A stretch of 64,000 nt of DNA from assembly GCA_036759345.1 (NCBI GenBank), contig DAIOUV010000005.1, positions 56,246-120,245 of the forward strand. Reading direction: 5' to 3'. The stretch comes from Acidobacteriota bacterium (GTDB taxonomy: Bacteria; Acidobacteriota; Thermoanaerobaculia; UBA5066). Position 1 is the stretch's first letter. Every line of letters starts with the position of its first letter. Below are positions 1,883 through 25,117 of this stretch, piece after piece. Position numbers and translations under genes: made by a program. The notes under the pieces are model-generated. The model saw nothing but the letters and a program-made list of their open reading frames with translations. It searched no databases and was not told the DNA's origin.

Positions 1883-3325
1883 ATGAGTTGGTCCGACGGC
1901 GAGCTGCGTGCGTTGGCCGAGGCCCATTTTCGTGGGGAACTTCCGAGATGCCCCCGGGACGGAACGCCGGTCCGTGCCGAAGAGATCACGACGTTAGGTA
2001 GAAGGACGGCCGATCTCTATCTTCGGTGTCCTCGGTGTGGGAACTCAGCGACCTTCGAGAACGACGAGCCGACGGGCAGCAGCCCATCGTGGACCGCACC
2101 GCAGCGACAGACAATCGTCGACGACTATTGGCGGAATGGAGCGGCACGGTGCCCGGTGGACGAGACCATCCTACACATTCAGGAGTCGGCTGAGCTCGGT
2201 CACGAGGTCACCGCGATTTTGGTGCACTGCCTTAGGTGTGGGCGTTACTTTTCTAGTGACGAGGAGCAGCAGGACGAGCCGGCCGGCGAGTCGTTTGAAG
2301 GTCGGTACGAAGTCCTTCGGCAGATAGGCAGAGGCGGAATGGGAACCGTCGACCTCGTCAAGGATCGACGGACGGGCGGCCTCTTCGCTGCGAAGACGAT
2401 TCGACCGGATCGAGTCGACGACGCTGATTCTCTACGAAGATTTCAACGTGAAGTGAGACTTCTACGGGGCGTCTCGCATCCGCATGTCGTGAGGATCGTC
2501 GACGACTTCATCGCTGGTGGTACCGCGGTCTACGTCATGGAGTATCTGCCCGGTGGGGACCTGGCCAATGCACTTTCCGATCCCAACCGAGGTCGGCCTG
2601 CCTTGGCGACGCTCTTCAGCGACGCAGCGGAGGCGGTGGAGCACCTGCACGGGGCAGGCGTAATTCATCGCGACCTCAAGCCTCAAAACATCCTTGTCGA
2701 TGCGGAGGGGCGAGGCCGAGTGTCAGACTTCGGCCTTGCTGTCGCGAGCGCGCGCGATACGACGCCCCTCACCGGTACGGACGTGTTTGTCGGAACGAGA
2801 CGTTACGCGGCCCCCGAGCAGCACCGTGGGGCGCGCGATGTCACTTCGCGGGCGGACATCTTTTCGTTGGGGTTGATAGCGATCGAGGTGGTGACGCGCC
2901 TGCCATACCCAGACGACTTCCTCACGATGTGCCGTGGTACGGGCCAGCTCGCAGACGCGCTGAGCAGAGCGTTGGATCTGGACCCGACGAGGCGCACCAT
3001 CCGGCCGCTCGAATTAGCTGAGGCCGTCCGGGCGCACATCGAGCGAGAAATGGGAACGACCGTGACGCAAAAGGCGAGAATTGAGGTCCCGCAGAACGGC
3101 TTCACCTTGTTGAACCGGGTGACGGATGACGATGCAGTCGATACCCACCTCAAAGAGCTCGGCTTCCGCCGAACCGGGAAACGCGGATGGCCGAAGAAGG
3201 GGCAACTCTATTTAGGGCGAGGAAAGCCTTTCGGTCCGTTTCGCGGGATCTATCGCAAAGAGGTCGACCCGCCGGCTGGTGGGTTATCGACGGCTGACCT
3301 TTTCGAACTGCTTGAGGAAATCTGA
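1883..3325 (+). CDS. Ser/Thr protein kinase (Hanks-type) with N-terminal tandem zinc-ribbon modules and uncharacterised C-terminal domain
   Basis: Kinase motifs GRGGMGTV…AAKTI, HRDLKPQNILVD, DFGLA, APE. N-term has two repeated CPxDxT…x18…C(P/L)RCG units. Gene sits in a lower-GC segment. Confidence 0.85.
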   Translation: MSWSDGELRALAEAHFRGELPRCPRDGTPVRAEEITTLGRRTADLYLRCPRCGNSATFENDEPTGSSPSWTAPQRQTIVDDYWRNGAARCPVDETILHIQESAELGHEVTAILVHCLRCGRYFSSDEEQQDEPAGESFEGRYEVLRQIGRGGMGTVDLVKDRRTGGLFAAKTIRPDRVDDADSLRRFQREVRLLRGVSHPHVVRIVDDFIAGGTAVYVMEYLPGGDLANALSDPNRGRPALATLFSDAAEAVEHLHGAGVIHRDLKPQNILVDAEGRGRVSDFGLAVASARDTTPLTGTDVFVGTRRYAAPEQHRGARDVTSRADIFSLGLIAIEVVTRLPYPDDFLTMCRGTGQLADALSRALDLDPTRRTIRPLELAEAVRAHIEREMGTTVTQKARIEVPQNGFTLLNRVTDDDAVDTHLKELGFRRTGKRGWPKKGQLYLGRGKPFGPFRGIYRKEVDPPAGGLSTADLFELLEEI

Positions 3326-3347
3326 CGTCGAGTGCGTCCCTCCGCAC

Positions 3348-3409
3348 GGCGCGATGCGTGCGAGACGGCCATGTGTGACGAGTGCGCCTGGCCGGGCGCG
3401 CATCGCGCC
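3348..3409. terminator. GC-rich inverted repeat between convergent genes (possible bidirectional terminator)
   Basis: Arms GGCGCGATGCG (3348-3358) and CGCATCGCGCC (3399-3409), located between the stop of the kinase gene and the stop of the DUF3800 gene; no clear U-tract. Confidence 0.35.
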
Positions 3410-3443
3410 TCGGTGGAGCTTCTTCCTTTAGTGGTCGTGCGCC

Positions 3444-4187
3444 CTATGCCTCGTCGAACTGCTCGACGAGGGCGCGAAGGGCAGCGTAATTGAAGTACCT
3501 TGGGTTTATCAGCCTTCGCCGGAGCCGCGCCATCGATTTTCTCTCTCCGCGGGTTGGGTCGAAGAGCTTGTGGTCGAGGGCCTTCCGGAGCTCGTAAGCC
3601 ATGAGGTCCGCCGCCTGAAGAGGGATCGCGTCGTGCTTCGAGGCAAAGCGAAGCGAGCCCAGGCGAAATGCTCGCGGCCACTTTCCGCCGGAAGTCAGTT
3701 CGTCGTAGACCTTCTCGGCCCTTGCGTGGAACTCGCCCTGTTGATCGAAGACGAATGCGATTTTCTCGCGCGGATGAACGTCTTCAGCCTGGATGCAGGT
3801 CTCGATGAGGCAGTGCTGAAAGGCCAGGAGGTAGGGATGGCGATACCAGTGCGGTGTCACCTTGCCACGCGCGATGAACTCAGCAGAGATGCGCTCATAG
3901 TCGGCCTTGACGACTCCACAGCCTATGCCCCAGACGTCCGTCGAATTAATGAGCGCCAGCAGGTCCTTGATGAGGCCGATTCGTTTCGCGTTACTCCAGC
4001 CCTCGAACTCGCCGTGCCGAGTCTCGAACTCGGCCATGTGGAAGCAGCTGACGCCAGCCTCGGCGAGGAGTTGCTGCCAAGCCCTCGTCAGCTCGAACCA
4101 GTCCTTGGAATCGGCGACGTAGCCGCCGATGCAGAAGGTCTGGGACTTCTCGTCCAGGCCGCTCTCGTCGAAATAGCCCGCGAGCAC
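3444..4187 (-). CDS. DUF3800 family protein
   Basis: Probable GTG start giving VLAGYFDESG… (the YxDESG N-terminal signature of DUF3800) and C-terminal IPLQAADLMAYEL motif. The ORF-track N-terminal 90 aa (MGGHGRAP…) is Arg/Pro-rich read-through and is ignored. Overlaps the stop of the upstream Mrr gene by a few nt. Confidence 0.7.
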   Translation of the reverse strand: MLAGYFDESGLDEKSQTFCIGGYVADSKDWFELTRAWQQLLAEAGVSCFHMAEFETRHGEFEGWSNAKRIGLIKDLLALINSTDVWGIGCGVVKADYERISAEFIARGKVTPHWYRHPYLLAFQHCLIETCIQAEDVHPREKIAFVFDQQGEFHARAEKVYDELTSGGKWPRAFRLGSLRFASKHDAIPLQAADLMAYELRKALDHKLFDPTRGERKSMARLRRRLINPRYFNYAALRALVEQFDEA

Positions 4188-9126: not shown

Positions 9127-10029
9127 CTACGCTCCGGCCTTCGCCCGCAGTTCGTCGATGAGGTTCAGCCGGTGCAGCGTCCGGCCGAGGTGCGCCGCGA
9201 AGGCTATGAGGTGCTCGAGCTCGGACGATTCGCCGGGCGGAGGAAGCGGTCCGCGCCGATAGAGGCGCAGGGTACCGAGGAGCTCGCGGCCTCCGAAAAC
9301 CGGGGCGGCGGTGATGGTCCAGTCGGGGCTGACGTCGCCGGCGAGCCGCGGGGCGCGCCCCGTGCGCGGATCCTCCTCAAGGCCGAGCGTCGCGACGAAC
9401 TCCGGAAGGCTCCCGCCCGGCCAGGCGCTGGAGGCCCCGACGAACAGCTCGACGTGGCCCGTGCGCCGAACGTGCAGCGTGACGCCGTCGGCGCCGAACA
9501 CGGACGAGATCCGGTCGAGGATGGGGACGAGCAGGCGCGCCCGAAAGTCCTCGGCCGTGACGCCGTCCTCCTCGACCTTCGCGAAGATCTCCTGCTGCAG
9601 CTCGAGGATCTGGGTGCGGGCCGTGAGGGCGTCCAGGAGCTCCTTGATGCGGAGCGCGTTCTTCACGCGCGCCTTCAATTCGCGGGCGGAGAAAGGCTTC
9701 GTGACGTAGTCGTTCGCGAGCGCCTCGAAGCCCTGCAGGAGATCTTCCTCCTCGGTGCGCGCCGTCACGAAGATAACCTGCGTGCCCGCGGTCGCGGCCA
9801 CGGTCTTGATCCGGCGGCAGACCTCGTACCCGGAGAGATCGGGCATGCGAACGTCCAGGAGGACGACGTCGGGCCGACGGGCGTCCACCTTTTCGAGGGC
9901 CTCGGTGCCGGACAGGGCGCTTTCGAAGTCGCAGCCGAGCTCGTAAGCGATGTACGACGCCACTTCGGCCTGGTACGGGTCGTCGTCCACGAGGAGGAGC
10001 AATGGGGGCGCGGCCGGCGATCGAAACAT
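9127..10029 (-). CDS. Response regulator with N-terminal receiver and C-terminal GAF-like domain
   Basis: LLLVDDDP…DVVLLDVRMPD…VTAR…KPF receiver, followed by ~150-aa domain with GAF-like features. Confidence 0.7.
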   Translation of the reverse strand: MFRSPAAPPLLLLVDDDPYQAEVASYIAYELGCDFESALSGTEALEKVDARRPDVVLLDVRMPDLSGYEVCRRIKTVAATAGTQVIFVTARTEEEDLLQGFEALANDYVTKPFSARELKARVKNALRIKELLDALTARTQILELQQEIFAKVEEDGVTAEDFRARLLVPILDRISSVFGADGVTLHVRRTGHVELFVGASSAWPGGSLPEFVATLGLEEDPRTGRAPRLAGDVSPDWTITAAPVFGGRELLGTLRLYRRGPLPPPGESSELEHLIAFAAHLGRTLHRLNLIDELRAKAGA

Positions 10030-10130: not shown

Positions 10131-11555
10131 ATGAGCCGCTCCCTCGAGGAGTTCCGCCCCGTCCGCCCGGGAAAGATCGGCCTCTACACGTGCGGTCCCA
10201 CCGTCTACAACCGGGTGCACATCGGCAACCTCAGGACGTTCGTCTGGGAAGACGTGATGTGCCGCGTCTTCCGCGCCCTCGGCTACGAGACGACGCAGGT
10301 GATGAACCTCACGGACATCGACGACAAGACGATCCGGGGCGCCGTGGCCGCCTCTCTGCCGCTTCGCGCGTTCACGGACCCGCACATCGCGACGTTCTTC
10401 GAGGACCTCGGGACGCTCGGCGTCGTGCCGGCGGCGCTCTATCCGCGCGCCACCGAGCACATCCCCGAGATGGTCACGCTCGTCAAGCAGCTCGCCGCCC
10501 GCGGGCACACGTACGAGAGCGACGGTTCGGTCTGGTTCCGGATCTCGACGTTTCCGGGCTACGGGAAGCTCTCGAAGATCGACCTCACGGCCGTGAAGCG
10601 CGGCGCGCGCGTGGCCGACGACGAGTATGAGAAGGAAGACGTGCGCGACTTCGCGGTCTGGAAGGAAGCGAAGGAGGGCGAGCCCGAGTCCGCGACATGG
10701 ACCACACCGCTTGGCCGCGGGCGGCCCGGCTGGCACCTCGAATGCAGCGCCATGGCGATGAAGTACCTCGGCGAAACGCTCGACATCCACACGGGCGCCG
10801 TCGACAACATGTTCCCGCACCACGAGAACGAGATCGCGCAGAGCGAAGGCGCGACCGGAAAGACGTTCGTCAACTTCTGGCTCCACGCCGAGCACCTCCT
10901 TGTCGACGGCGAGAAGATGTCGAAGAGCAAAGGGAACTTCTACACGCTTCCCGACCTCCTCGAGAAGGGCTTCTTTCCGCGCGCGATCCGGTACCTCCTC
11001 ATTTCGGTCCCGTATCGGATGAAGCTCAACTTCACCTTCGACGGACTCAAGGCCGCGACGTCGGCTGTGGAGAGGCTGGAGTCGCTCGACCTGCGCCTTC
11101 GGGAGAATATTTCTTTGAAGGTGAACACGCCCGAGGCAGCGGGCGGGGGCTTCGCGGAGCGAGTGTCGGCGGCGCGCCGGGCGACGTTCGATGCCCTCGA
11201 AGACGACCTGAACACCGCCGGTGCCCTGGGCGCCCTCTTCTCGTTCGTGAAGGCGACGAACGTCGATCTCGAGGCGGGGCATCTCTCCGCGTCGGACGCG
11301 ACGGCCGCGCGAGGTTTACTACGAGAGATCGCCGGCGACATCTTCGGCATCATTCAGGGCACCGCCGCTGCCGAGGCGGTGGACCTCTCCCCCGATGTCG
11401 ACGAGACGTGGATCGACGCGCGCATCGTCGCCCGCAAGGCAGCCAAGAAGGCCCGGGATTTCGGGGCCGCCGATGCGATCCGCGACGAGCTCCTGGGCAA
11501 GGGAATCGTCCTCGAGGACACACCCCAGGGCGTACGCTGGAAGAGGAAGCCTTGA
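10131..11555 (+). CDS. cysS: Cysteine--tRNA ligase
   Basis: MSRSLEEFRPV…LYTCGPTVYNRVHIGNLRT (HIGH), KMSKS present, Cys-binding region. ATG at 10131; the ORF-track upstream extension is ignored. Confidence 0.9.
   Translation: MSRSLEEFRPVRPGKIGLYTCGPTVYNRVHIGNLRTFVWEDVMCRVFRALGYETTQVMNLTDIDDKTIRGAVAASLPLRAFTDPHIATFFEDLGTLGVVPAALYPRATEHIPEMVTLVKQLAARGHTYESDGSVWFRISTFPGYGKLSKIDLTAVKRGARVADDEYEKEDVRDFAVWKEAKEGEPESATWTTPLGRGRPGWHLECSAMAMKYLGETLDIHTGAVDNMFPHHENEIAQSEGATGKTFVNFWLHAEHLLVDGEKMSKSKGNFYTLPDLLEKGFFPRAIRYLLISVPYRMKLNFTFDGLKAATSAVERLESLDLRLRENISLKVNTPEAAGGGFAERVSAARRATFDALEDDLNTAGALGALFSFVKATNVDLEAGHLSASDATAARGLLREIAGDIFGIIQGTAAAEAVDLSPDVDETWIDARIVARKAAKKARDFGAADAIRDELLGKGIVLEDTPQGVRWKRKP
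11102..11125 (+). repeat. AT-rich dispersed motif copy A (forward) inside cysS
   Basis: GGAGAATATTTCTTTGAAGGTGAA; matches the consensus GGAAGATTTCTTWGAAGG…. Confidence 0.6.
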
Positions 11556-11703: not shown

Positions 11704-11733
11704 CCCCCTCCGGCCCGGAGGGGGTTTCGTTTT
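11704..11733 (+). terminator. Rho-independent terminator-like hairpin downstream of cysS
   Basis: CCCCCTCC-GGCCC-GGAGGGGG stem-loop followed by TTTCGTTTT; the U-tract overlaps the TTG start assigned to aroDE. Confidence 0.6.
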
Positions 11734-13258
11734 GGTCCTGACCGCTGGGAAAACGCTTCTCGTCGCGTCCTTCGCGCCGGCTTCGAACGCCGAGGCGCTA
11801 GGGGAGCGCGCGGCTCTCGCCGATCTGCCTCCTTCGGCCGCGGTGGAGCTGCGCCTGGACGCGATGACCGAAGAGCCCGCGTTCGGCGCGCTGCGCGCGT
11901 GCTTCGAGGGTCGGACGCTGATTGCCACCGTCCGATCCGCTGCTGAAGGAGGAGCCTTCCGGGGCAGCGAGGAAGAGGAAAAGCGCCTCCTCGGAGCCGC
12001 ACTGGCGGCGGGTTTCGATCTCGCCGACGTGGAATACCGCGGCGGGGTGCGTGCCACGCTGCTCGGTCTTCCGCCTTCAAAAGCAATTCTCTCTCTGCAT
12101 GACACGGAAGGCATCCCTGCCGACGTGAACGCAGTCGTGGCCCGGATGCTCGCGACACCGGCGCGCTTCGTGAAGGTCGTGGCGACGGCGAACGATTCCG
12201 GCGATGCCCGCCGCCTTCTCGAGCTTCAGGCCGCGAACCCCGGGGGACGCCTCGCGACGTTCGGCATGGGCGAGGCCGGGATCGCCACGCGCGTCCTCGC
12301 GCCGTATCTCGGCGCGGCGCTCGCGTACGGCGCGCTCGTCCGCGGGCGCGCCACGGCACCCGGGCAGCTTCTCGCACGCGACCTCGCCGAAATCTACGGC
12401 GTCGGCCGCGCGCGAGAGGTTTCGCGGCTCTTCGCGCTTGTGGGCGGCGTCGTCTCCCACTCCCTCTCTCCGGCGCTCCACAACGCGAATTTCGAAGCTC
12501 TCGGCCAGGACGCGCTCTACGTTCCGTTCGCGATGCGGATGCTCGGGAGGGAGCTCGAGCCGCTCGTCGCCTCGCTCGATGCGCTCGGTCTTCCCCTCGC
12601 GGGCGCCTCGGTGACGATTCCGTTCAAGGAGGAGGCCGCGCTTCTTTCGGGCTCGGCCGAGGACGGCGAGAGGGCGGTCAACACGCTACTGAGGTCGAGC
12701 GCCCCGGGCCTGCCGCTCCGGCTGCGCGCGGAAAACACCGATCGTGCGGCATTCGAGGCCGTGATTGAAGATGGTGGCGTCGCTCTCGTCCTCGGGGCGG
12801 GCGGCACGGCGAGGATCGCCATGGATGTTCTTGGAAAGAAGAAATATGAAGTCTTTCTGATGAACCGAGGCGACGAGCGCGGCGCGGCGCTTGCGAAAGC
12901 CAAGGGCGCCCATTACCTTTCTCAGAAATCCCCAAGGGCCTTTCCTCAGCCGGATGTCCTCATCAATGCGACCCCGCTTGGTCTGAAAGAGGGCGATCCT
13001 CTTCCGTGCGAGCAGAGTCTTCTTCGCCCCGGGATGCTCGTCATCGACGCACCCTATCGGGCCGGCGGAACGGAGCTCGTCCGGGCGGCGCGCGCCGTGG
13101 GGGCCCGCGTCGTGGACGGCCAGACCCTGCTCCTGCTTCAGGCCGCGGGCCAGGCGACGCTCTTCACCGGGCGGGACACGAGCCCGCGAGAGCTGCTCTT
13201 GCGTCTCGCGCCGCGCCTTCGTTCCCTGTTTTCTTCCGTCGAGGAATTTCTCCCGTGA
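11732..13258 (+). CDS. aroDE: Bifunctional 3-dehydroquinate dehydratase (type I) / shikimate dehydrogenase
   Basis: N-terminal …VELRLDAM…, FVKVV (type I DHQase, Schiff-base Lys region). C-terminal shikimate DH (…GVVSHSLSPALHNANF…, GAGGTARIA Rossmann). TTG start is the only in-frame start. Confidence 0.75.
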   Translation: MVLTAGKTLLVASFAPASNAEALGERAALADLPPSAAVELRLDAMTEEPAFGALRACFEGRTLIATVRSAAEGGAFRGSEEEEKRLLGAALAAGFDLADVEYRGGVRATLLGLPPSKAILSLHDTEGIPADVNAVVARMLATPARFVKVVATANDSGDARRLLELQAANPGGRLATFGMGEAGIATRVLAPYLGAALAYGALVRGRATAPGQLLARDLAEIYGVGRAREVSRLFALVGGVVSHSLSPALHNANFEALGQDALYVPFAMRMLGRELEPLVASLDALGLPLAGASVTIPFKEEAALLSGSAEDGERAVNTLLRSSAPGLPLRLRAENTDRAAFEAVIEDGGVALVLGAGGTARIAMDVLGKKKYEVFLMNRGDERGAALAKAKGAHYLSQKSPRAFPQPDVLINATPLGLKEGDPLPCEQSLLRPGMLVIDAPYRAGGTELVRAARAVGARVVDGQTLLLLQAAGQATLFTGRDTSPRELLLRLAPRLRSLFSSVEEFLP

Positions 13259-14889
13259 AGATCGAGCGGCCCGACCCGAATCTGCCGCGCGGCGTGCAGG
13301 CTTTTCTCTTCGACGCGGCCGAGCGCCGCCGTAAGGCGGAGGATTCCGTCGTGCGCAGGCTTCAGGACGCCGGTCTCCGCGAGGTGATCCTTCCCGTTCT
13401 CGATTTCGCGGCCCCCTATGCGGGCGTGACGGCCGAGGGAGACGAGCGCGTCTACCGGTTTCTCGACCGGCAGGGGAATACCCTCGCGCTCCGGGCGGAC
13501 TTCACGCCGATGGCCGCCCGGGTCGTCGCGCCGCGGCTCGGCGCTCTCTCCGGAGCCGTCTCCCTTTTCTATCGCGGGGACGTCGTGCGCGACGAGGAGA
13601 CCGGCGTCGGTCGCCGCCGCGAGTTCGCGCAGGTCGGCGCCGAGCGTTACGGCGACGGCCGCCCGGAGGCCGACCGCGAGATGCTCGCGTTGGCCCTCTC
13701 GTGCCTCGGCGACCTTCCGGCCACGCGCCTCAGGCTCACGCTCGGCTGGGCGGGCCTTCTCGAACGTCTGCTCACGACGCTCGCGCCGGGGTTCCGAGAG
13801 GACCGAGCGGACGGCGCGGCCGGACTCGCCGGGGCCGTGTCGGCCGCACGTGCCCGGCACGTCACGGAGCTGGAGACGCGGCTCTCTGCTGCGGGCGCCG
13901 CGCCGGTCGCCGCGGCCGAAGCCGCCCGGGCCCTCCTCGTCGGCTTCGAGCCCGCTTCGGATCTCTTCCGCCCGCCGGAGCTCGCGGGCGCGGCCGCGGA
14001 GCTCGCGCGCGCGGTCGCGATCGCGAAAGGCGCCCGGCCCGGCCTGTTGGTCGTCGTCGACCTCGCGGACGCGCCCCAGGCGCCGTATTACACGGGGCTC
14101 ACGTTCAGCGTGGACGCCGCGAACGGAGGCGGCACGATTGCCGGAGGCGGACGGTACGACGGCCTCCTCGGGCGCTTCAGCGCGGCGGCTCCCGCACTCG
14201 GCTTCTGCATCGGCCTCGAGACTCTCGGTGCCGCCACGGAGGCCGGCGACACGGGCACGCGCCCTCTGCGGATCGCGGTGGGGAAGGGCCGGCTCCTGCC
14301 GAAGGCGCTCGAAGCGCTCCGTGCCGGAGGCGCCTCGTTCGGCGAGCCCGACGGCCGGCGCCTCCTCGTGCCCTCTGCGGACGGCGCGTTCGAGCTGCTT
14401 CTCCTCAAGGACGACGACGTCCCGACCTATGTGGCCCACGGCGGAGCCGACCTGGGGATCGTGGGCAGCGACCGGGTCGCGGAAAGCGGCGAGGACGTGA
14501 CCTCTCCCGTGGAGCTTCCCTTCGGCGCCTGCCGCCTTTCCCTCATCGGCCGGGCGGGGGAGGCATTCCGCCCGAACGGCGCGCCCGTGCGTGTGGGCAC
14601 GAAGTACCGCCGCCTCGCGGCCCGTTATTTCGACGAGCGGAAGATCGCCCACGAGATCGTCCCTCTCGCGGGTTCGGTCGAGCTCGCGGCCGCCCTGAAG
14701 CTCACGGACGTCGTCGTGGATCTCATCGAATCCGGGTCCACGATGGCCGCGAACGGCCTCGCCGAGATCGAAACCATCCTCACGAGCTGCGCGACGCTCA
14801 TCCTTGGACGGGCTTCGCTCGTGGCCCGCCGGGCCGAGATCGCGGAGTTTGTCGAGCGCCTCAGGGTTCACGCGGAGGGGCGGGCATGA
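13255..14889 (+). CDS. hisZG: Fused ATP phosphoribosyltransferase regulatory subunit HisZ / catalytic subunit HisG (short form)
   Basis: N-terminal HisRS-paralogue (HisZ) region, then from ~aa 330 a HisG-S domain (…LRIAVGKGRL…, …GGADLGIVGSDRV…, …DLIESGSTMAANGL…). GTG start overlaps aroDE stop. Confidence 0.75.
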   Translation: MKIERPDPNLPRGVQAFLFDAAERRRKAEDSVVRRLQDAGLREVILPVLDFAAPYAGVTAEGDERVYRFLDRQGNTLALRADFTPMAARVVAPRLGALSGAVSLFYRGDVVRDEETGVGRRREFAQVGAERYGDGRPEADREMLALALSCLGDLPATRLRLTLGWAGLLERLLTTLAPGFREDRADGAAGLAGAVSAARARHVTELETRLSAAGAAPVAAAEAARALLVGFEPASDLFRPPELAGAAAELARAVAIAKGARPGLLVVVDLADAPQAPYYTGLTFSVDAANGGGTIAGGGRYDGLLGRFSAAAPALGFCIGLETLGAATEAGDTGTRPLRIAVGKGRLLPKALEALRAGGASFGEPDGRRLLVPSADGAFELLLLKDDDVPTYVAHGGADLGIVGSDRVAESGEDVTSPVELPFGACRLSLIGRAGEAFRPNGAPVRVGTKYRRLAARYFDERKIAHEIVPLAGSVELAAALKLTDVVVDLIESGSTMAANGLAEIETILTSCATLILGRASLVARRAEIAEFVERLRVHAEGRA

Positions 14890-16151
14890 TCAGGATCGAC
14901 GACGCGGAGGCGCGCGCGGGAAAGAAGGAGCTGGAGATTCTGCTCGCGGGCCGCCGAGGAGCCGCTCCCGACTTCGCCACGCTGAAGCAGGTATTGCCGA
15001 TCGTCGAGGACGTTTTGCGAAGAGGGAAACCCGCGCTTAGGAAATACGTGACGCGCTTCGACCCGCCGGCCGTCCGTCGCAACGCCCGTGTCGACGAGGA
15101 GTTCGCGCGCGCGTTCCGCGTCGCGCGGCGGCGCATCGAGGCCTATCACCGCAAGCAACTCGTCTCCATCTCCTCCGAGTTCTCGTTTCGGGATTCTCTC
15201 GGCGTCTCGTTCGTCGAGAAATCCGCGCCGTTCGACTCCGTGGGCGTATACGTGCCCGGAGGCCGCGCGTTCTATCCGTCCTCGCTCCTCATGGGGGTCG
15301 TACCCGCGCGCGTCGCGGGCGTGCGGCGAGTCGTTGTCGCGACGCCGCGCGGGGCGTGGGCGTCCAGCCCCGAGCTCCGCTGGGCGGCGGTCGAGCTGGG
15401 AGTCGACGAGGTGCTGCGCGCGGGAGGGGCTCACGGCATCGCCGGCCTCGTCTCCGTCTCCGGCGTCGCGAAGATCGTCGGTCCCGGAAACCGGTTCGTC
15501 GCGGCGGCGAAGCACCTCGTCTCGGGCCTCGTGGCGGTCGACATGCCGGCGGGCCCGTCGGAGGTCTTGATCGTGGTGTCAGCCGACGCCGACCCGGCTC
15601 TCGTGGCGGCGGATCTTCTCGCACAAGCCGAGCACGACCCCGACGCGAAGTGCCTGCTGTTTACGGACTCTCGGCGACTCGCAACCGCCGTGCAGGATGC
15701 AATCGCCTTGCAATTGGAGACGTTCGAAGAGACCGGTTCTTCGAAGGTGATGAGAGCGGCCCTGCGCCGCGGCGGGCGGGTCTTCCTATTCAAGGAAATC
15801 TCACGCGCCGTGTCCTTCGGTTCTGCATTTGCCGCCGAGCACGTCCAGGTGTTCGGAAAGGCCGCCGAACGCCTCTCGCCGCGGCTCCTTCCGACGGCCG
15901 GCGCCCTCTTCATCGGCGCGTCGACGCCGACCGCGCTCGGAGACTACGTTCTCGGCCCGAACCACGTGCTGCCCACCGGCGGCGCCGCGCGCAGCTTCTC
16001 GGGCCTTTCGGTGCGCGACTTCCTGCGCTGGGGCCGTTCGGTGAGCGCGCCCCCGAAAGCGGCGCGCCGCCTCGCGCCCAAGGCAGCGGTTCTGGCGCGA
16101 TTCGAGGGCCTCGTGGCCCACGCGAGCGCGCTCGACCGGAGGGCCCGGTGA
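14886..16151 (+). CDS. hisD: Histidinol dehydrogenase
   Basis: ATG overlapping hisZG stop (ATGA). …VYVPGGRAFYPSSLLM…, …QAEHDPDA…, …PNHVLPTGGAARSFSGLSV… motifs. Confidence 0.9.
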   Translation: MIRIDDAEARAGKKELEILLAGRRGAAPDFATLKQVLPIVEDVLRRGKPALRKYVTRFDPPAVRRNARVDEEFARAFRVARRRIEAYHRKQLVSISSEFSFRDSLGVSFVEKSAPFDSVGVYVPGGRAFYPSSLLMGVVPARVAGVRRVVVATPRGAWASSPELRWAAVELGVDEVLRAGGAHGIAGLVSVSGVAKIVGPGNRFVAAAKHLVSGLVAVDMPAGPSEVLIVVSADADPALVAADLLAQAEHDPDAKCLLFTDSRRLATAVQDAIALQLETFEETGSSKVMRAALRRGGRVFLFKEISRAVSFGSAFAAEHVQVFGKAAERLSPRLLPTAGALFIGASTPTALGDYVLGPNHVLPTGGAARSFSGLSVRDFLRWGRSVSAPPKAARRLAPKAAVLARFEGLVAHASALDRRAR

Positions 16152-17808: not shown

Positions 17809-18434
17809 GCGAAGCTTCGGCGCCGGCGGTCACGCTCGTGGACTATGGGGTCGGTAACACGGCCTCCGTCGTTCGCGCGTTCCGCCGGCTCGGCGCCGAG
17901 GTGGACTTCACGGCTGATCTCGACCGGGTGGCGTCCGCCCGCCGCCTCGTTCTGCCCGGCGTCGCCGCGTTCGCCCCGGCGATGAACCGGTTGCTCGAGA
18001 CCGGCCTCGAATCGGCCGTGCGGGCCGCGGTGAAGCGGGGCGGACGCCTCCTCGGGCTGTGCCTGGGGTTCCAGCTCCTCTTCGAGGAGAGCGAGGAACA
18101 CGGCGTTCACAGAGGACTCGGCCTCGTGCCGGGCCGGGTCGGCCCTTTTCCCGGTGGCGTGCGAACGCCTCACGTGGGCTGGAACCAGCTCCTCGCGCGC
18201 CGTTCGGACGGTTTCGTCGAGGGGCTGGCGGAAGGGAGCTTCGTCTACTTCGTGCACTCCTACCGTCCCGAGGGCACCGAAGCCGCCGACGTGGCCGCGG
18301 CCTGCGACCACGGCGGAGAGTTCCCGGCGATCGTGCAGCGCGGGAACGTCTGGGGCTGCCAGTTCCACCCGGAGAAGTCGTCGGAGAACGGCCGGCTCCT
18401 GCTCTCGAATTTCCTCCGGGAGGACGCGGCGTGA
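17805..18434 (+). CDS. hisH: Imidazole glycerol phosphate synthase, glutamine amidotransferase subunit
   Basis: [10 protein letters not shown]…[11 protein letters not shown]…HVGWN…CQFHPEKS class I GATase triad. Confidence 0.9.
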
Positions 18435-19219
18435 GCGGCGGCCGGCTCGCGCTATGGCCCGCGATCGACCTCATGGGTGGACGCGTGGTCCGGCTGCTCC
18501 AGGGCAAGCGCGAGGCCGTTACGTTCTACGACGAGCCGCCGGCCGAGGCCGCGAAGCGATTTGCGGCGGAAGGCGCCGACGGCATTCACGTCGTGGACCT
18601 CGATGCCGCTTTCGGAGCGGAAAACAACCGGAACAACCGGAAAGAGATCGACGAAATTCTTTCTGTTTCGGAGGCTTTCGGGATGGCAGTGCAGGTTGGG
18701 GGAGGTTTCCGGTCGCAGGAGGCAGTGGAAGATTTCTTAGAAGGGGTGAGTACCGCTCGGGCTGTTGTCGGCAGCTTGCCATTCCTCGACCGCCCCGCCT
18801 TCATTCACCTTCTAAGAAAATCTTCCTTTCCTTCTCTGGCGTCCCGCATCGTCGTTGCCCTCGACTGCAAGGATGGCCGCCCGACGGTGCGCGGGTGGAC
18901 CGAGGACGCGGGAGCGGGCGACGCCGTGTCGGTGGCCCGTTCGTTCGCCGCTCTCGGCGTCGGTACGTTGCTCGTCACGGACGTCGCGTGCGACGGAGCG
19001 ATGACGGGCCCGAACCTCGGACTTCTCTCCGCCGTGCGCGCCGTGTTCGCGGGCGAGATTCTGGCGTCAGGCGGCATGCGCGGCGAAGAAGATCTCGCCG
19101 CCGTCGACCGCGCGCTCGCGGGCGGGCCCCGCGGCGCCATCTTCGGCCGCGCGTTGCACGGCGGAGCCACGACCGTGGCGAAGCTCAAGGCGGCGCGGGA
19201 TCTCGGGAGGTCTTCATGA
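18431..19219 (+). CDS. hisA: ProFAR isomerase (1-(5-phosphoribosyl)-5-[(5-phosphoribosylamino)methylideneamino]imidazole-4-carboxamide isomerase)
   Basis: [15 protein letters not shown]…QVGGGFRS…[15 protein letters not shown]…; contains an internal 22-bp inverted repeat pair and a TTA codon (see findings). Confidence 0.88.
18727..18750 (+). repeat. AT-rich dispersed motif copy B (forward) inside hisA
   Basis: GGAAGATTTCTTAGAAGGGGTGAG; contains TTA codon; inverted partner at 18806-18827. Confidence 0.75.
18806..18827 (-). repeat. AT-rich dispersed motif copy C (reverse) inside hisA
   Basis: TCACCTTCTAAGAAAATCTTCC = reverse complement GGAAGATTTTCTTAGAAGGTGA; ~21/22 match to copy B. Confidence 0.75.
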
Positions 19220-20658
19220 CCCTCGCCGTGCGCGTTATTCCGTGCCTGGACGTCGCGGACGGCCGCGTCGTGAAGGGCGTCTCGTTCGAGCACCTCCGCG
19301 ACGCGGGGGATCCGGTCGAGGCGGCCGCGCGCTACGAGGCCGAGGGGGCCGACGAGGTGGCCTTCCTCGACATCGCGGCCGCGCAGGAGAAGCGGGGGAC
19401 GCTCGTGGAGCTCGTGGGGCGCGTGGCCGAGGCGCTGTCGATTCCCTTCACCGTGGGCGGCGGCGTGCGCTCCGTGGAGGACGCGGACGCACTCCTGAGA
19501 GCCGGCGCCGACCGGGTCACGGTGAACACGGCCGCGGTCGAGGACCCCTCCCTTATCACGCGCCTCGCCGAGCGCTTCGGGGCGCAGTGTGTCGTCGTCG
19601 CGATCGACGGAAAGCGGCTGCGCGATCCGAACGGGCTCGCGGTGATGCGCGTGACGACCCATGGCGGGAGGCGTCCGGTCGACCGCACGGTGACGTCCTG
19701 GGCGGCCGCGGCGGCCGCGGCGGGTGCCGGAGAGATCCTGCTCACGTCCGTCGACGCGGATGGCACCTTGGCGGGGTTCGATCTCGAAATGCTGCGCGCC
19801 GTGCGCTCCGTCGTCGACGTGCCGGTCGTGGCCTCGGGAGGCGCGGGCCGGCTCGATGATTTCGCGAAGGCGGTTCTCATCGGGGGCGCCGACGCCGTGC
19901 TCGCGGCATCCGTCTTCCACGACCGTCTCTTCACGGTCGGCGCGGTCAAAGAGGCGATGCGGCGGGCCGGCCTCCCGGTGCGTCCCGCGCCGGCCCACGC
20001 GCGCACGCTGCTTCCCCGCTACGACCAGAACGGGCTCGTTCCAGTGATCACGCGGGACGTTGCGACCGGCAAAGTCCTCACGCTCGCGTGGGCGAACGCG
20101 GACGCGATCGCGAAGACGCGCGAGACTGGCCTCGCGCATTTTTACAGCCGGTCCCGGAAGGCGCTGTGGCGGAAGGGGGAGACCTCGGGGAACATCCAGC
20201 GCGTCGCGGGAATTTCCATCGACTGCGATGCCGACGCCGTGCTGTACGACGTGCGCCCGTCTGGTCCCGCCTGCCACACGGGAGCGGAATCGTGCTTTAC
20301 GCGCGTGGAGAGCTTCGACGCGGTCGACCTTCCGGAGGCGACCTCTTTGGACGCCGATGGGCTCGACCTCACCGAGCTCTTCGCCGTCGTGAGGGACCGG
20401 AAGGAGTCGCCCGTCGCGGGCTCCTATACGAACAGGCTCCTCGACGACGGGGTCGCGCGCATCGCCCAGAAAGTGGGGGAGGAAGCCGTCGAGACGGCGC
20501 TCGCGTCGGTGACGGGCGACGGCAACGCCCTCGCGGGAGAGGCGGCGGATCTTCTCTATCATCTCGTGGTCCTTCTCACGGCGCGCGGGGTCGCGCCGGG
20601 CGATGTCGCCGCGAGACTCGCCGAGCGCCGAGGCGCCGCCAGGCGCGAGAAGCCGTGA
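19216..20658 (+). CDS. hisF-hisIE: Trifunctional fusion: imidazole glycerol phosphate synthase cyclase subunit HisF / phosphoribosyl-AMP cyclohydrolase HisI / phosphoribosyl-ATP pyrophosphatase HisE
   Basis: HisF (…[16 protein letters not shown]…VGGGVRS…) ~255 aa, in-frame continuation into HisI (…[21 protein letters not shown]…GETSGNIQ…CHTG…) and HisE (…LYHLVVLL…) with no intervening stop in the 480-aa ORF. Confidence 0.75.
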
Positions 20659-22031
20659 AGCGCCTCCATCGCCTCGTCGTGGTCGAGCGGCCGGCGGACC
20701 TCACGACTCCGGTGGCCCTCATGCGCGGCCTTCTCGCGGGAGACGGGCCGTGCTTCCTTCTCGAATCGGTCGAGGGCGGCGACCGCGTGGCGCGGTGGTC
20801 CTTTCTCGGGGCGTCGCCCTCGGGAGAGATCTCCGGCCGGGATACGGACCCGTTCGCCGCCCTCAGGGCGCTGCCTCGCGACGAGGCCGCGAGCGGGGAA
20901 GACGACCTTCCGCCCTTCACCGGAGGAGCGGTCGGGTACGCGGGCTACGACGCCGTGCGGCGCCTCGAGCGTCTCCCGGCGACGAACCCCGACCCGATCG
21001 GACTGCCGGACGCGTGGTTCGGGATCTTCGACGCGGTCATCGCCTTCGACCACGTGCGGCACCGCCTCCTCTTCGTGACGCACGCTGCGAATGGCGACGA
21101 AGCCTCCGCGCGCTCCCGTCTGAAAGCGCTCGAGAAGCGGGCGCTCACCCGGAGCGGCAAAACGCGCTCAAAGCCTCTGTCTCCTCTTACTTTCGAAGAA
21201 TCTTCTCCCCGTGCTTTCTACCTCGCCGCGGTCGAGCGAGCGAAAGAGCACATCCGCGCGGGCGACGTCTTCCAGGTCGTCCTCTCGCGCCGCTGGTCCG
21301 CGCCCTTTGACGGCGACCCGTTCGCGGTCTACCGGGCGCTGCGGTCTATCAGCCCGTCGCCGTACCAGTACTTCCTGAGGACGCCGGACGGCACGATCTT
21401 CGGGGCCTCGCCCGAGCGTCTCGTGCGCGTCGCGGCGGCCCCCGGCGGCGCAATCGTGGAGACGATCCCTCTCGCGGGCACCCGCCCGCGCGGCGCGACG
21501 CGTGAAGAAGACCTCGCGCTTGAGAAGGAGCTCCTCGCCGATCCGAAGGAGCGCGCGGAGCACGTGATGCTCGTGGATCTCGGGAGAAACGACCTCGGCC
21601 GCGTCGCGAAGGCCGGGAGCGTGCGCGTGAAAGACTTCTTCCGCGTCGAGCGCTATTCCCATGTCATGCACATCGCCTCGCGCGTGACCGGCGTTCTCGC
21701 CGAGGGGAAGGACGCCGTCGACGCCCTAGTGGCGACGTTTCCGGCCGGGACGCTGACGGGAGCGCCCAAAATACGCGCGATGGAGATCATCGAGGACCTC
21801 GAGCCGGTGAGGCGCGGAGCCTACGGCGGCACAGTGGGCTACCTCGACTTCGCAGGAAACCTCGACGTGGCCATCGCGATCCGGACGGCCGTCGTCGCGA
21901 ACGGCACTCTCCACGTGCAGGCCGGCGCCGGCATCGTCGCCGACTCGGACCCGGAGGCCGAAGCCACCGAGTGCGAGAACAAGGCGCGCGCTCTCATGCG
22001 TGCGGTGGAAGAGGCGGGGACGTACCGATGA
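20655..22031 (+). CDS. trpE: Anthranilate synthase component I
   Basis: GTG overlapping hisF-IE stop; …LLESVEGG…, …SPERLVRV…, …[12 protein letters not shown]… chorismate-binding signature. Confidence 0.88.
21183..21208 (-). repeat. Degenerate reverse-orientation motif copy J inside trpE
   Basis: CCTCTTACTTTCGAAGAATCTTCTCC; weaker match (CCTCTT tail + TTCGAAGAATCTTC core). Confidence 0.35.
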
Positions 22032-23631: not shown

Positions 23632-23643
23632 ACGCGCCCGAGA

Positions 23644-23670
23644 GGAAGATTTCTTTGAAAGGGAAGAGGG
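23644..23670 (+). repeat. AT-rich dispersed motif copy D (forward) overlapping trpCF RBS
   Basis: GGAAGATTTCTTTGAAAGGGAAGAGGG immediately upstream of the GTG start of trpCF. Confidence 0.7.
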
Positions 23671-23671
23671 C

Positions 23672-25117
23672 GTGAGCGGCTCGATTCTGGGGGAGATTCT
23701 CGCCGCCAAGAGGCGCCGCATCGCGGCGGGCGAGTTCACGGCCGAGACCGCGCGCGCGCGATCTCGCGCCGGGGCAGGCCTGTTCGCCGCTTCGCCGGAT
23801 GGCGCATCCTTCACTGCGGCCCTCTCTTCCTCTTCGAATTCCTTTTCTAAGCAGAATCTTCTGCTTTCTTTTCTTTCTGAAATAAAGCACCGCTCTCCGA
23901 GCGCGGGGCTGATCCTTCCCGACGCGTCCTCGCGAATCGAATCCGTCGCGTGCGCCTATCGCCGCGGCGGGGCGTCGGCCCTCTCCGTCGTCATCGAGCA
24001 GGACTTCTTCGGCGGCGATCCGTCGTGGCTGCCCCGTGCGAAGGCGGCGTCGGGGCTGCCCGTTCTGATGAAGGACTTCGTCGTGGACGAGGTCCAGCTG
24101 GACTTCGCCGCGGCCCTCGGCGCTGACGCGGTGCTGCTCATCGTGTCCGCTCTCGACGGCGAGACGCTCTCGCGGCTGCATGGGGCCGCGCGCTTCCGCG
24201 GGCTCGCGGTCCTCGTGGAGGCGCACGACGAGACCGAGATCCGGCGGGCGCTGGCCGTGGGCGCGGAGGTCGTCGCGGTGAATGCGCGCGACCTCGGGAC
24301 GTTTGCCGTCGACCTGCCCGGAATGGCCCGTCTCGGTGCGCTTCTGCCTCCGTCGGTCGTCCGCGTGGCCGAGAGCGGCATCAAGACCCGAGCGGACGTG
24401 GAGACCCTCTCCGCGGCGGGCTACGGAGCCTTCCTCGTCGGCGAAACGCTCCTCCGTGCTGCGGATCCGGCGCGCGCTCTGCGCGAGCTGCGCGGCGAGA
24501 ACGCGACCGAGATCAAGATTTGCGGCGTCACGCGCGAAGAGGACGTCGACACGTGCATGGAGCTCGGCGTGGACTGGATCGGGCTCATCTTCGCGGCGCG
24601 ATCGACGCGTCGGTTGACGCCGGAAAGAGGGATTTCTTTGAAGGAAAGAGCGCGGGCGGCCAAGGGTGTCGTGGCGGTTTTCGACGAGGAGACGTCCGAG
24701 GACGACGTCTTGAGCATCGTCAAACGTGTCTGCCCCGACGCCATTCAAATGCCGAACCCCCCTCTTCCCCTTCAAGAGAAATTCTCTTCGGTCCTTTCTT
24801 TCTGGAACACCATCCGCGTCGGACGCGATGACCTCGCGTATGTGGGAAATCGCACGGGCGCTGCACTCCACTTCGACACCTCCGTCGCCGGACTCTCCGG
24901 AGGGACGGGCAAGACCTTCGACTGGACTCTTCTATCCGCTGTCGATCGATCGCGCCCGGTGATTCTCGCGGGCGGCCTTAAACCCGAAAACGTGGCGGAC
25001 GCCGTAAGGATGGTGAAGCCCGACGTCGTGGACGTGGCGTCGGGAGTGGAGTCCGCGCCGGGAATCAAGGATCGGGCGAAAATCGCCGCGTTCGTGAGGG
25101 AGGTCCGTGGTGTCTGA
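23672..25117 (+). CDS. trpCF: Bifunctional indole-3-glycerol-phosphate synthase / phosphoribosylanthranilate isomerase
   Basis: GTG start after GGGAAGAGGG RBS; TrpC (…[13 protein letters not shown]…, …NARDL…) fused in frame to TrpF (…IKICGVT…, …FDWTLL…, …[11 protein letters not shown]…). Confidence 0.82.
23829..23861 (-). repeat. AT-rich dispersed motif copy K (reverse) inside trpC
   Basis: CCTCTTCGAATTCCTTTTCTAAGCAGAATCTTC; reverse-orientation copy with a 2-nt insertion, ~185 bp downstream of copy D. Confidence 0.55.
24622..24652 (+). repeat. AT-rich dispersed motif copy E (forward) inside trpF part of trpCF
   Basis: GGAAAGAGGGATTTCTTTGAAGGAAAGAGCG; encodes …[10 protein letters not shown]… (same ISLK reading as copy A in cysS). 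Confidence 0.7.
24761..24791 (-). repeat. AT-rich dispersed motif copy F (reverse) inside trpF
   Basis: CCTCTTCCCCTTCAAGAGAAATTCTCTTCGG; similar to copy G; ~140 bp downstream of copy E. Confidence 0.55.

Follow-up and report, generated by a model that had tools for sequence, protein, structure and literature searches.

Several families of short bacterial repeats offer points of comparison for the element described here. Rickettsia palindromic elements (RPEs) are in-frame repeats found in the open reading frames (ORFs) of housekeeping genes, where each forms one contiguous insertion of 100 to 150 bp. The uptake signal sequences (USS) of the Pasteurellaceae and the DNA uptake sequences (DUS) of the Neisseriaceae occur at a fairly even density of about 1 per kb, and where they form inverted pairs, these are mostly intergenic terminators. 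In Neisseria, the hairpins of Correia/NEMIS elements are cut by RNase III. HIP1 of the cyanobacteria is an 8-bp perfect palindrome that occurs unpaired and genome-wide. The CodY box is AATTTTCWGAAAATT, and we know of no CodY-like factor in the Acidobacteriota. Repetitive extragenic palindromic (REP) elements are extragenic, and each is a palindrome with a GTAG or CGTC tag (PMC3733652). Here we describe a repeat found in a 64,000-nucleotide stretch (68% G+C) of contig DAIOUV010000005.1 (assembly GCA_036759345.1), which derives from a member of the Thermoanaerobaculia (Acidobacteriota). This whole stretch is referred to below as the window, and positions are those of the window. A preliminary description of it had drawn attention to an inverted repeat inside hisA. 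We found that the hairpin in hisA corresponds to one pair, fixed at orthologous sites, of a paired repeat that is clade specific, sharply defined, and mostly intragenic.

Relatives of the window genome were represented by 20-kb his-trp loci from 48 genomes, of which about 25 constitute the ingroup and 10 belong to sister lineages with the same gene order. All of these are metagenome-assembled genomes, some with indel errors, and their his loci were fetched with six peptide patterns, one of which covers the hisA 5' arm. Literature searches on the motif sequence, on repeats of Thermoanaerobaculia and on MITEs (miniature inverted-repeat transposable elements) of acidobacteria returned nothing relevant, and we found no published description of an AT-rich paired repeat in this lineage.

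The hisA arms belong to a clade-specific repeat

The host gene hisA (18431-19219, plus strand; 262 amino acids; Pfam His_biosynth, 8.5e-51) starts at a GTG that overlaps the hisH stop codon and has the same model in public gene calls. It contains a forward copy of the repeat at 18718-18755 on the plus strand (nhmmer, 26.1 bits), with its core TTTCTTAGAAGG at 18733-18744 and its head GGTGAGT at 18745-18751, and a reverse copy at 18796-18832 on the minus strand (23.1 bits), with its core CCTTCTAAGAAA at 18808-18819. In protein and codon alignments, the purine-rich tail of the reverse copy (18820-18844, minus strand), which is pyrimidine-rich on the plus strand, corresponds to a Ser-rich stretch. 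The preliminary description had recorded the two copies as arm B (GGAAGATTTCTTAGAAGGGGTGA) and arm C (TCACCTTCTAAGAAAATCTTCC). Arm B lies where it was reported, at 18727-18749, and arm C lies at 18805-18826, its end having been placed 1 base too far to the right. Reading the sequence at 18431-19219 confirmed the 55-nt spacer and the location of both arms within the hisA ORF. The reported complementarity of 21 of 22 positions holds only when a 1-nt bulge (TTT versus TTTT) and a 2-nt bulge (GGGG versus GG) are allowed. Without gaps, perfect pairing is limited to 12 nt (18733-18744 with 18808-18819), and beyond this core there are 6 pairs across the 1-nt bulge and then 3 to 5 across the 2-nt bulge.

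A strict search of the window and the ingroup loci for the core identified 95 copies. The copies share an anatomy in which a purine-rich tail of variable length leads into GATTTCT-NN-GAAGG and then into a purine-rich head, mostly GTGAAGAGGGG, which in hisA is GGTGAGT. An nhmmer model built from these 95 copies gave 10 to 16 matches per 20-kb his-trp locus in the approximately 25 ingroup genomes, at the same positions from genome to genome; the 10 loci of the sister lineages gave none. In 477 kb of ingroup loci there are 54 occurrences of the perfect 12-mer, and among the matches listed there are 138 in 663 kb of metagenome loci; neither the 12-mer nor any of its 36 one-mismatch variants is present in 179 kb of sister-lineage DNA. 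The metagenome loci came from a scan with the 19-mer TTTCTTAGAAGGTGAAGAG, which returned at least 120 loci, nearly all on contigs of 63 to 74% G+C. Appreciable variation in the core is confined to positions 1, 7, and 11. The seventh base shifts with the reading frame, so that TAG and TGA are avoided, and copies occur in either orientation, in whichever frame escapes a stop codon.

Taken alone, the hisA inverted repeat is only moderately beyond chance expectation. The window has 19 perfect inverted repeats of 12 nt within 400 nt versus 11.3 ± 4.4 in simulated sequence, and the duplex energy of the hisA arms ranks 675th among 63,899 equally spaced arm pairs in the window. What is unusual about the arms is their composition and their recurrence. 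An A+T-rich 12-mer inverted repeat like that of hisA is expected 0.04 times in the window, and the core 12-mer with no more than 1 mismatch occurs 5 times versus 0.06 expected. The TTA codon that had been pointed out in the 5' arm is indeed rare (2 of 445 Leu codons), and the arms use other avoided codons, namely, CTA (7 of 445 Leu codons), AGA (3% of Arg codons), and GAA (22% of Glu codons). The G+C content at third codon positions (GC3) drops locally to 0.25 to 0.5 at the arms, compared to a gene mean of 0.77.

Simpler sources of the motif were considered and set aside. A protein-level or codon-bias cause was ruled out, since the motif is read in two frames in each orientation and is also found between genes, and since synonymous sites are fixed on disfavored codons. 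Mimicry of an altered anti-Shine-Dalgarno sequence was also ruled out, since GGAGG has remained the purine pentamer most often found before starts, as judged with a crude start prediction. The likeness of the hisA head, GGGGTGAGTACCGC, to a T-box sequence or a 5' splice site was judged to be due to chance, since this head is not found in other copies and is half conserved among hisA orthologues. K-mer enrichment computed from the window alone was uninformative because the window copies are few and degenerate.

Copies are conserved as sequences, with no sign of selection for pairing at hisA

Alignment to PriA/HisA structures shows that the forward copy in hisA encodes the AVEDFLEG region at the end of helix alpha3; the reverse copy encodes FIHLLRKSS, in helix alpha4. 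The 55 nt between them (18750-18804, plus strand) are native hisA sequence outside the repeat and encode beta4 and the following loop, as determined by residue-by-residue alignment with motif-less outgroup HisA and with solved HisA/PriA. The synonymous sites of this interior vary freely among relatives. Codon alignment of 24 ingroup hisA genes revealed that the 5' arm is kept as GAA GAT TTC TTA GAA (A/G)GG GTG AGT and the 3' arm as CAC CTT CTA AGA AAA TCT TCC TCT, the latter with CTT in 24 of 24 genes, CTA in 20 of 24, AGA in 21 of 23, and AAA in 14 of 15. Synonymous sites flanking the arms are G/C-ending and variable. When positions encoding the same residue were compared, the codon was identical in 80% of cases within the arms, with 62% A/T at third positions (AT3), versus 63% identical codons and 13.5% AT3 in the rest of the gene. 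The HisA proteins compared are 65 to 77% identical.

At the sites of the arms, the HisA proteins of the sister lineages read VEAALAS... and ...ALLAEF, are encoded by GC-rich codons, and are of near-equal length. The motif has therefore been written over native hisA codons, with one residue added at the 5' arm. No insertion of approximately 100 bp was found in hisA when it was aligned with solved HisA/PriA and with relatives; the differences in length are the additional amino acid at the 5' arm and a stretch of Ser residues that follows the 3' arm and ranges from 0 to about 30 amino acids among relatives. The insertion of an in-frame palindromic element into hisA was ruled out, since the arms and the interior align with outgroup HisA and with HisA structures in the Protein Data Bank.

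Additional features of hisA were observed in the course of these alignments. A third patch of AT-ending codons, at 18641-18676 (AAA GAG ATC GAA GAA ATT CTT TCT ..., encoding KEIEEILSVS), is kept in relatives and lies outside the repeat model; within it, GAAGAAATTCTTTC is nearly palindromic. In some relatives (L011, 3553-3800; P0030, P0053, and P0074), HisA has an extra in-frame segment of about 40 amino acids directly after the first pair, e.g., ...LLREYSDKDFLERVSAATALPRGPALFERGVLTHPLRRSSS, which is a diverged tandem duplicate of the complete arm-spacer-arm unit. In the nanopore-derived locus L033 (10230-10350), apparent indel errors break the hisA frame near the 5' arm, and the arms are intact and in native orientation. 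The Glu/Lys-rich tails of the cysS forward copies show the same length instability as the Ser run of hisA.

The duplex of about 20 bp that had been proposed for the his-trp mRNA is reproduced by folding predictions. RNAfold pairs the hisA arms whether 126 nt (-51.1 kcal/mol; z, -3.96) or 361 nt (z, -2.15) of sequence are folded, and the predicted minimum-free-energy structure consists of 12 + 6 + 5 bp with two bulges, extended by GGAGG/CUUCU. The further suggestion that compensatory synonymous changes maintain this structure was not borne out, since the 24 hisA genes show no covariation beyond column conservation. In these genes, 83% of cells pair, versus 81.5% after partners were shuffled within columns, and double changes occur at 6 pairs versus 4.5 expected, a number reached in 103 of 500 shuffles. 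One core pair is A.C in 13 of the 24 genomes. G.U combinations (47) are not clearly favored over A.C combinations (34), and the two are equally frequent in the core (21 versus 21). An absence of covariation preserving base pairing had been named beforehand as the result that would speak against the stem, and this is essentially what was found at hisA, where low variation limits the power of the comparison.

Comparisons across sites gave a similar picture. Partners have the same centre bases in 15 of 45 pairs, versus 21 expected under independence, and true partners do not form better duplexes than random partners (-40.2 versus -43.1 kcal/mol). The hisA arms of the same genome pair no better than arms taken from different genomes (-31.5 versus -32.2 kcal/mol). 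Only at cysS, in one of seven tests, did the arms pair better within a genome (-40.6 versus -37.2 kcal/mol; p, 0.008). The arms are complementary because both match one consensus. Since copies are conserved at the nucleotide level and partners are not co-adapted, what is conserved is the sequence of the copies and their paired arrangement, not base pairing. We thus found no sign of selection for pairing at hisA and little elsewhere.

These results bear on the possibility that a structural RNA hairpin in the his-trp mRNA, with similar hairpins elsewhere, is selected for pairing as an RNase III site, a decay barrier, or a ribosome pause. Such a role would be consistent with the folding predictions, with the finding that any forward copy can pair with any reverse copy at about -40 kcal/mol, with pairs being the rule, with enrichment in a 17-kb polycistronic cluster, with the forward copy that covers the trpC ribosome-binding region while its partner lies inside trpC, and with the single positive result at cysS among the seven tests. 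Nevertheless, we regard it as quite improbable. Apart from the lack of covariation at hisA and the A.C and G.U counts given above, the two centre bases drift uncompensated, partners are not co-adapted, and the duplex energy is unremarkable for a GC-rich genome. No Rfam family matched the window at the gathering score, and none matched 18500-19000 at E values up to 10; no promoter or terminator was found at the hisA arms. Moreover, a hairpin would need neither a common sequence in every gene nor the convergent order described below.

Copies form convergent pairs around host coding sequence

Pairs were counted as neighboring matches within 500 nt. The his loci contain 83 convergent, 1 divergent, and 7 tandem pairs, and the metagenome loci contain, among the matches listed, 67 convergent, 4 divergent, and 14 tandem pairs, giving 150 convergent versus 5 divergent pairs for the two sets combined. 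The forward-then-reverse arrangement reported at hisA is thus seen again at other loci, and codon alignments of hisA show that the hisA pair is conserved in relatives. The polarity of the pairs is constant, with tails outward and heads inward. Partners are 24 to 36 nt apart in three compact hairpin forms, which make up 3 of the 52 distinct metagenome pairs among the matches listed, and 67 to 350 nt apart otherwise. The sequence between partners is that of the host gene, as illustrated by the beta4 region of HisA, the DALR domain of CysS, and the N terminus of TrpC.

Most copies sit within long ORFs, in sense or antisense orientation. For the metagenome loci, gene context was deduced from ORFs and GC3 only, and attempts to sort pairs into those within one or two transcription units by means of these calls were too noisy to be used. 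A compact form lies in frame in the gene for RNase R (L076, 3503-3570), where it encodes DFLEGSPSSPSKKSSSS, and another lies in the nusG-rplK spacer (L110, 150-230). A split pair fills the leader of an operon consisting of a small ORF and an aminoacyl-tRNA synthetase gene (L176, 5392-5519). Hosts of the 19-mer among the metagenome matches listed include RNase R, YbeY, aroB, CysRS, a Thr/Ala-tRNA synthetase domain, and ABC proteins. Translation and RNA-processing hosts across the data are rimO, fmt, RNase R, ybeY, the aminoacyl-tRNA synthetase leader, and the nusG-rplK spacer. The hosts are biased toward amino acid supply and translation in the few regions covered, and this bias is not exclusive.

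An inverted-repeat pair that flanks an intragenic segment is also the arrangement of an intragenic inverton, in which convergent copies would be the inverted repeats of a segment flipped by a master recombinase. The constant polarity, as expected for the sites of a single recombinase, the use of the same sequence at all sites, and the lack of pairs less than 67 nt apart other than the three compact forms are compatible with this explanation. We consider it highly improbable, however, since about 200 site-genome combinations and 12 contigs carrying the window's own hisA all had the native orientation, assemblies of this kind showing the majority state. Read from the sequence, a flipped hisA interior would bring a stop codon directly after EDFLEGE, and eight or more switches in one essential biosynthetic cluster are implausible.

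Copies are concentrated in the cysS-aro-his-trp cluster

The cluster in the window has the order cysS-aroDE-hisZG-hisD-hisC-hisB-hisH-hisA-hisF/IE-trpE-trpG-trpD-trpCF-trpB, with rimO further on. Seven of the 10 nhmmer matches in the window fall between 11 and 25 kb. The density of matches is 0.59 per kb in his-trp loci, compared to 0.14 per kb in the listed metagenome loci outside the seed match. Four genomes yielded 67 matches (33 of them strong) in 83 kb of his-trp sequence, versus 14 (2 strong) in 85 kb around rimO, corresponding to 0.81 and 0.16 per kb, respectively. With the strict pattern, the same comparison gave about 35 copies versus 4. The cysS-aro-his-trp cluster is thus 5 to 16 times richer in copies than the rimO region of the same genomes.

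Some genes of the cluster, namely, hisC/B/H, hisF/IE, trpG/D, and trpB/A, are free of copies in all of the approximately 25 genomes. The matches of the rimO region sit in rimO, in an aminoacyl-tRNA synthetase leader, and after one gene; no match falls in the sensor kinase, peptidase, and transporter genes near rimO, and one genome has one match, a weak one, in the amidase gene.

This distribution is relevant to a molecular drive of the USS/DUS type, in which the motif would be preferred by the DNA uptake machinery and would accumulate by point mutation wherever coding allows. Such a drive would accord with a sharp 12-nt core that is lineage specific, present in both orientations, and intragenic in tolerated frames, as well as with copies that were created in place by substitution and are stable at orthologous sites. 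In addition, a ComEA-like protein is encoded, and its gene is the commonest host of the 19-mer among the matches listed (8 of 99; L049 and seven other loci). We give this drive a slender chance. The copies are strongly clumped, with the four gene groups named above empty in 25 genomes, and the background density is only about 0.14 to 0.16 per kb. Known uptake signals have neither convergent pairs around coding sequence nor variable purine tails, and the clade is uncultured. The ComEA-like host has an HHH_3 domain and corresponds to the natural-transformation DNA receptor, which is suggestive for the uptake idea, yet it represents one orthologous site only.

Copies originate by substitution or insertion and turn over locally

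Copies have arisen in two ways. In hisA, in fmt (LVETLNFLEGEW), and in the forward copy of trpF, they arose by substitution at pre-adapted sites, whereas in cysS, trpC, and the gene for RNase R they arose by short in-frame insertion. The insertions amount to 10 to 25 amino acids in TrpC and in both of the CysRS linkers that flank the native DALR domain, and tail lengths as well as the presence or absence of copies differ between genomes. In the cysS linker, which has no fixed length and where the protein is barely constrained, nearly all differences between orthologous reverse copies fall on the two centre bases.

The rimO gene provides an example of turnover. Compared to L173, L174, and L176 and to the window (47561-47584), the old forward site in L175 (10925-11000) has been recoded to GAAGACGTGAGAGAA, and an EEFLEA-type sequence 21 nt downstream has become a new site, GAAGATTTCTTGGAAAG. 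The reverse copy of L175 remained unchanged while the forward copy moved. In one other genome (L173), the reverse copy has been lost.

Insertions of this kind raise the possibility of a selfish or neutral in-frame repeat, akin to an RPE or a MITE, that is kept uniform by ectopic gene conversion and has no host function. Such a repeat would have spread in an ancestral genome and survived where a Glu/Lys-rich or Ser-rich peptide was tolerated. The insertions of 10 to 25 amino acids in the cysS linkers, trpC, and RNase R agree with this scenario, as do the differences in presence and absence between genomes, the variable tails, the tandem copies, the duplicated arm-spacer-arm unit of some hisA genes, the compact hairpin forms, and a high copy number with a sharp consensus. 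Even so, we hold it to be unlikely. A neutral relic is disfavored because relics would decay, yet the disfavored AT-ending codons are kept at orthologous copies despite saturated synonymous divergence. Many copies are overwritten native codons rather than insertions, and the interior of a pair is the native gene rather than element sequence. The strong clustering in one operon and the absence of matches to the motif in viral contigs also weigh against a selfish repeat, and the lack of shared centre bases between partners is contrary to local conversion. No autonomous element with these ends was found, although no systematic transposase search was made; widely spaced convergent copies that might have flanked such an element (L154 and L119) lie in ordinary genes such as fmt.

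Individual copies and other features of the window

In addition to the hisA pair, the cluster contains several other copies. The forward copy of cysS (11101-11132, plus strand; 19.9 bits) encodes RENISLKVNTP and is an insertion relative to the outgroup. Its reverse partner is present in most relatives and absent from the window genome (11380 region) and L006; L024 has no forward copy. A weak copy lies near the 3' part of aroDE (12905-12942, minus strand; 11.3 bits), and a degenerate copy in hisD (15737-15758, plus strand; 5.9 bits) is orthologous to the 7293+/7350- pair of relatives. Another degenerate copy, in trpE (21183-21200, minus strand; 4.8 bits), falls within a low-GC3 patch (21165-21224; GC3, 0.17 to 0.25), and its orthologues are stronger in L001, L003, L005, L012, L013, and L020.

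The preliminary description had also placed recurrences of the arrangement at trpC, trpF, and rimO. All three are real, with the qualification that the trpC forward copy lies in the trpD-trpC spacer, before the GTG of trpC, and that the trpC reverse copy is degenerate. The spacer copy (23636-23671, plus strand; 24.9 bits) ends at that GTG (23672) and adjoins the trpC start in all genomes examined, with its partner inside trpC. In the window, this partner (23822-23880, minus strand; GC3, 0.25) is a Ser/Leu-rich insertion relative to the outgroup, which was recognized by reading the sequence and is outside the reach of the nhmmer model. In the trpF part of trpCF, the forward copy (24618-24655, plus strand; 21.1 bits) is of substitution origin relative to the outgroup and faces a reverse copy at 24759-24794 (minus strand; 9.8 bits, supported by alignment).

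Outside the cluster, one copy lies in a gene for a methylpurine-DNA glycosylase (37953-37984, minus strand; 19.4 bits; Pfam Pur_DNA_glyco). The forward copy of rimO (47561-47584, plus strand; 12.6 bits), encoding EKDEDFLEV, is conserved in L173, L174, and L176 and displaced by 21 nt in L175. The rimO reverse copy (47680-47707, minus strand; 6.7 bits), encoding PFEEKSSR, is conserved in L174 to L176, and L173 has GC-rich codons in its place. Another reverse copy of rimO, a weak one, lies at 47738-47753 (minus strand; 4.0 bits).

Several genes of the cluster are fused, namely, aroD-aroE (11732-13258), hisZ-hisG (13006-14889), hisF-hisIE (19216-20658; 480 amino acids in public gene calls), and trpC-trpF (23672-25117); as listed, the long ORFs of aroDE and hisZG overlap. 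Further perfect inverted repeats of 13 to 14 nt within 400 nt, all GC-rich, were seen at 54617-54730, 12561-12880, and 9583-9747 (GCGCCGCCGGCGCC, CGCTCGTCGCCTCG, and GAAGATCTCCTGC), and the number of such repeats is within the simulated range. A run of low-GC patches (about 45% G+C in 40-nt windows) occupies 2200-3520. One of these, TAATTCATCGCGACCTCAAGCCTCAAAACATCCTTGTCGAT, translates to IHRDLKPQNILVD, a catalytic-loop motif of Ser/Thr protein kinases, and the gene is possibly of foreign origin.

Discussion

Each copy of the repeat is held to the family consensus separately, and rare AT-ending codons are fixed against strong GC3 pressure. From this we infer a persistent sequence-specific force on every copy. 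A cis element that is read in pairs fits the data best because the polarity of the pairs is constant, the position of a copy turns over while its neighborhood is retained, and copies clump in one functional group of genes. We therefore tentatively favor, at somewhat less than an even chance, a cis element that would be recognized sequence specifically and used as convergent pairs, forming a putative control or processing module for genes of amino acid supply and translation. In descending order of likelihood, the alternatives are the selfish repeat, the structural hairpin, the uptake-like drive, and invertons.

Under the cis-element model, each copy would be a recognition site read sequence specifically by a postulated trans-acting factor of the clade, and the working unit would be the convergent pair. 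This unit would most likely serve as a cis-acting control or processing module for amino acid supply and translation genes. If the target were DNA, the pair could act as two inverted binding sites; if it were RNA, the GA-rich 5' arm and the CU-rich 3' arm could form a duplex of 20 to 35 bp of constant sequence. The hisA hairpin would then be a by-product of the paired arrangement and not a target of selection. The data lean toward the recognition of sequence over structure, without deciding between a DNA and an RNA target. It is possible, though doubtful, that the motif marks an undescribed recognition system operating throughout the lineage, in which hundreds of convergent pairs in the coding sequence of amino acid supply and translation genes, together with one postulated trans-acting factor, would coordinate these genes from inside their ORFs. 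Candidates for such a factor would be a DNA-binding protein that takes two inverted sites and a sequence-specific protein that binds or cleaves double-stranded RNA.

Several points weigh against this model. The trans-acting factor is itself a postulate, and the enrichment rests on two regions in four genomes together with the window and the metagenome sample. ComEA-like, NlpC/P60, FG-GAP, and MFS proteins are also among the listed hosts of the 19-mer, so there is no clean regulon. No helical periodicity was found in the spacing of pairs, which is evidence against simple DNA looping, and every ribosome would unwind the arms in a sense transcript. The variable tails and tandem duplications resemble selfish or slippage-prone DNA. 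Finally, a drive without host function, such as biased uptake or ectopic gene conversion, could also hold copies to a consensus.

If the recognition system exists as outlined, proteins would have been bent to a nucleic acid signal, visible as EDFLEG, LLRKSS, poly-Ser, and poly-Glu, in dozens of housekeeping enzymes. A functional signal of this kind, a cis element systematically located within coding regions, would be a rarity; it would be strong enough to fix rare codons and would have reshaped surface helices and linkers of HisA, TrpC/F, CysRS, and RimO across the clade. It would also make direct tests possible in a group of Acidobacteriota that is uncultured and widespread in the environment. 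If the motif is instead a drive or a selfish element, it would be of a new type, with split convergent copies around native sequence that overwrite coding sequence without destroying it. The low-GC patches will mislead gene callers, codon usage analyses, and detectors of horizontal transfer, and as a taxonomic marker the motif delimits the clade sharply.

Comparison with known systems

RPEs share with the present repeat short in-frame copies in ORFs, mRNA hairpins, hydrophilic peptides at tolerated places, and orthologous sites, and the compact copy of RNase R (DFLEGSPSSPSKKSSSS) resembles them. An RPE is one unit, whereas two separate copies of 35 to 60 nt usually surround native coding sequence here, many copies overwrite codons, the core is invariant at synonymous sites, and the host is a GC-rich acidobacterium. 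Insertion of an entire element relative to homologues is seen at cysS, trpC, and RNase R and is not seen in hisA. The repeat is not a single contiguous palindromic unit; apart from the few compact forms, the arms are 55 to 350 nt apart with native coding sequence between them. Nor does it have the structure of a MITE, in which terminal repeats enclose element-specific DNA; the interiors here are host genes, and the variable tails make the ends of the copies indistinct.

USS and DUS offer parallels to the core itself. Both they and the present motif have a sharp, overrepresented, lineage-specific core that occurs in both orientations, lies within genes in certain frames, and sometimes forms inverted pairs, and both show substitution origin and orthologous stability, although insertions occur here too. 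The present motif differs in being clumped 5- to 16-fold in one cluster, in having pairs 67 to 350 nt apart around coding sequence, and in its variable purine tails. The even, genome-wide high density of uptake signals is not seen in the few regions sampled.

REP elements and the related BIME and REPIN are likewise high-copy short repeats that form inverted doublets able to fold into a hairpin, and roles in mRNA stability have been proposed for REP. The spacer of a REP doublet belongs to the element, whereas the copies described here are mostly intragenic, a single copy is not palindromic, and there is no GTAG or CGTC tag. Correia/NEMIS elements resemble the pairs as inverted-repeat elements that are cotranscribed with genes and fold into hairpins, and a role for RNase III was proposed for hisA in the preliminary description. 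Correia elements, in contrast to the present pairs, are contiguous insertions of 100 to 155 bp, mostly intergenic. Like HIP1, the motif is short, is kept in coding regions across a clade far above chance, and has no agreed function; unlike HIP1, it spans at least 12 nt and is asymmetric, paired, and clumped. With the intragenic CodY-type roadblock sites of Firmicutes, it shares a T-rich/GAA-type motif inside amino acid biosynthesis genes and a turnover of position with retention of neighborhood. It differs from them in that it is unlike the CodY box, is far less degenerate than typical operator sets, and occurs in convergent pairs.

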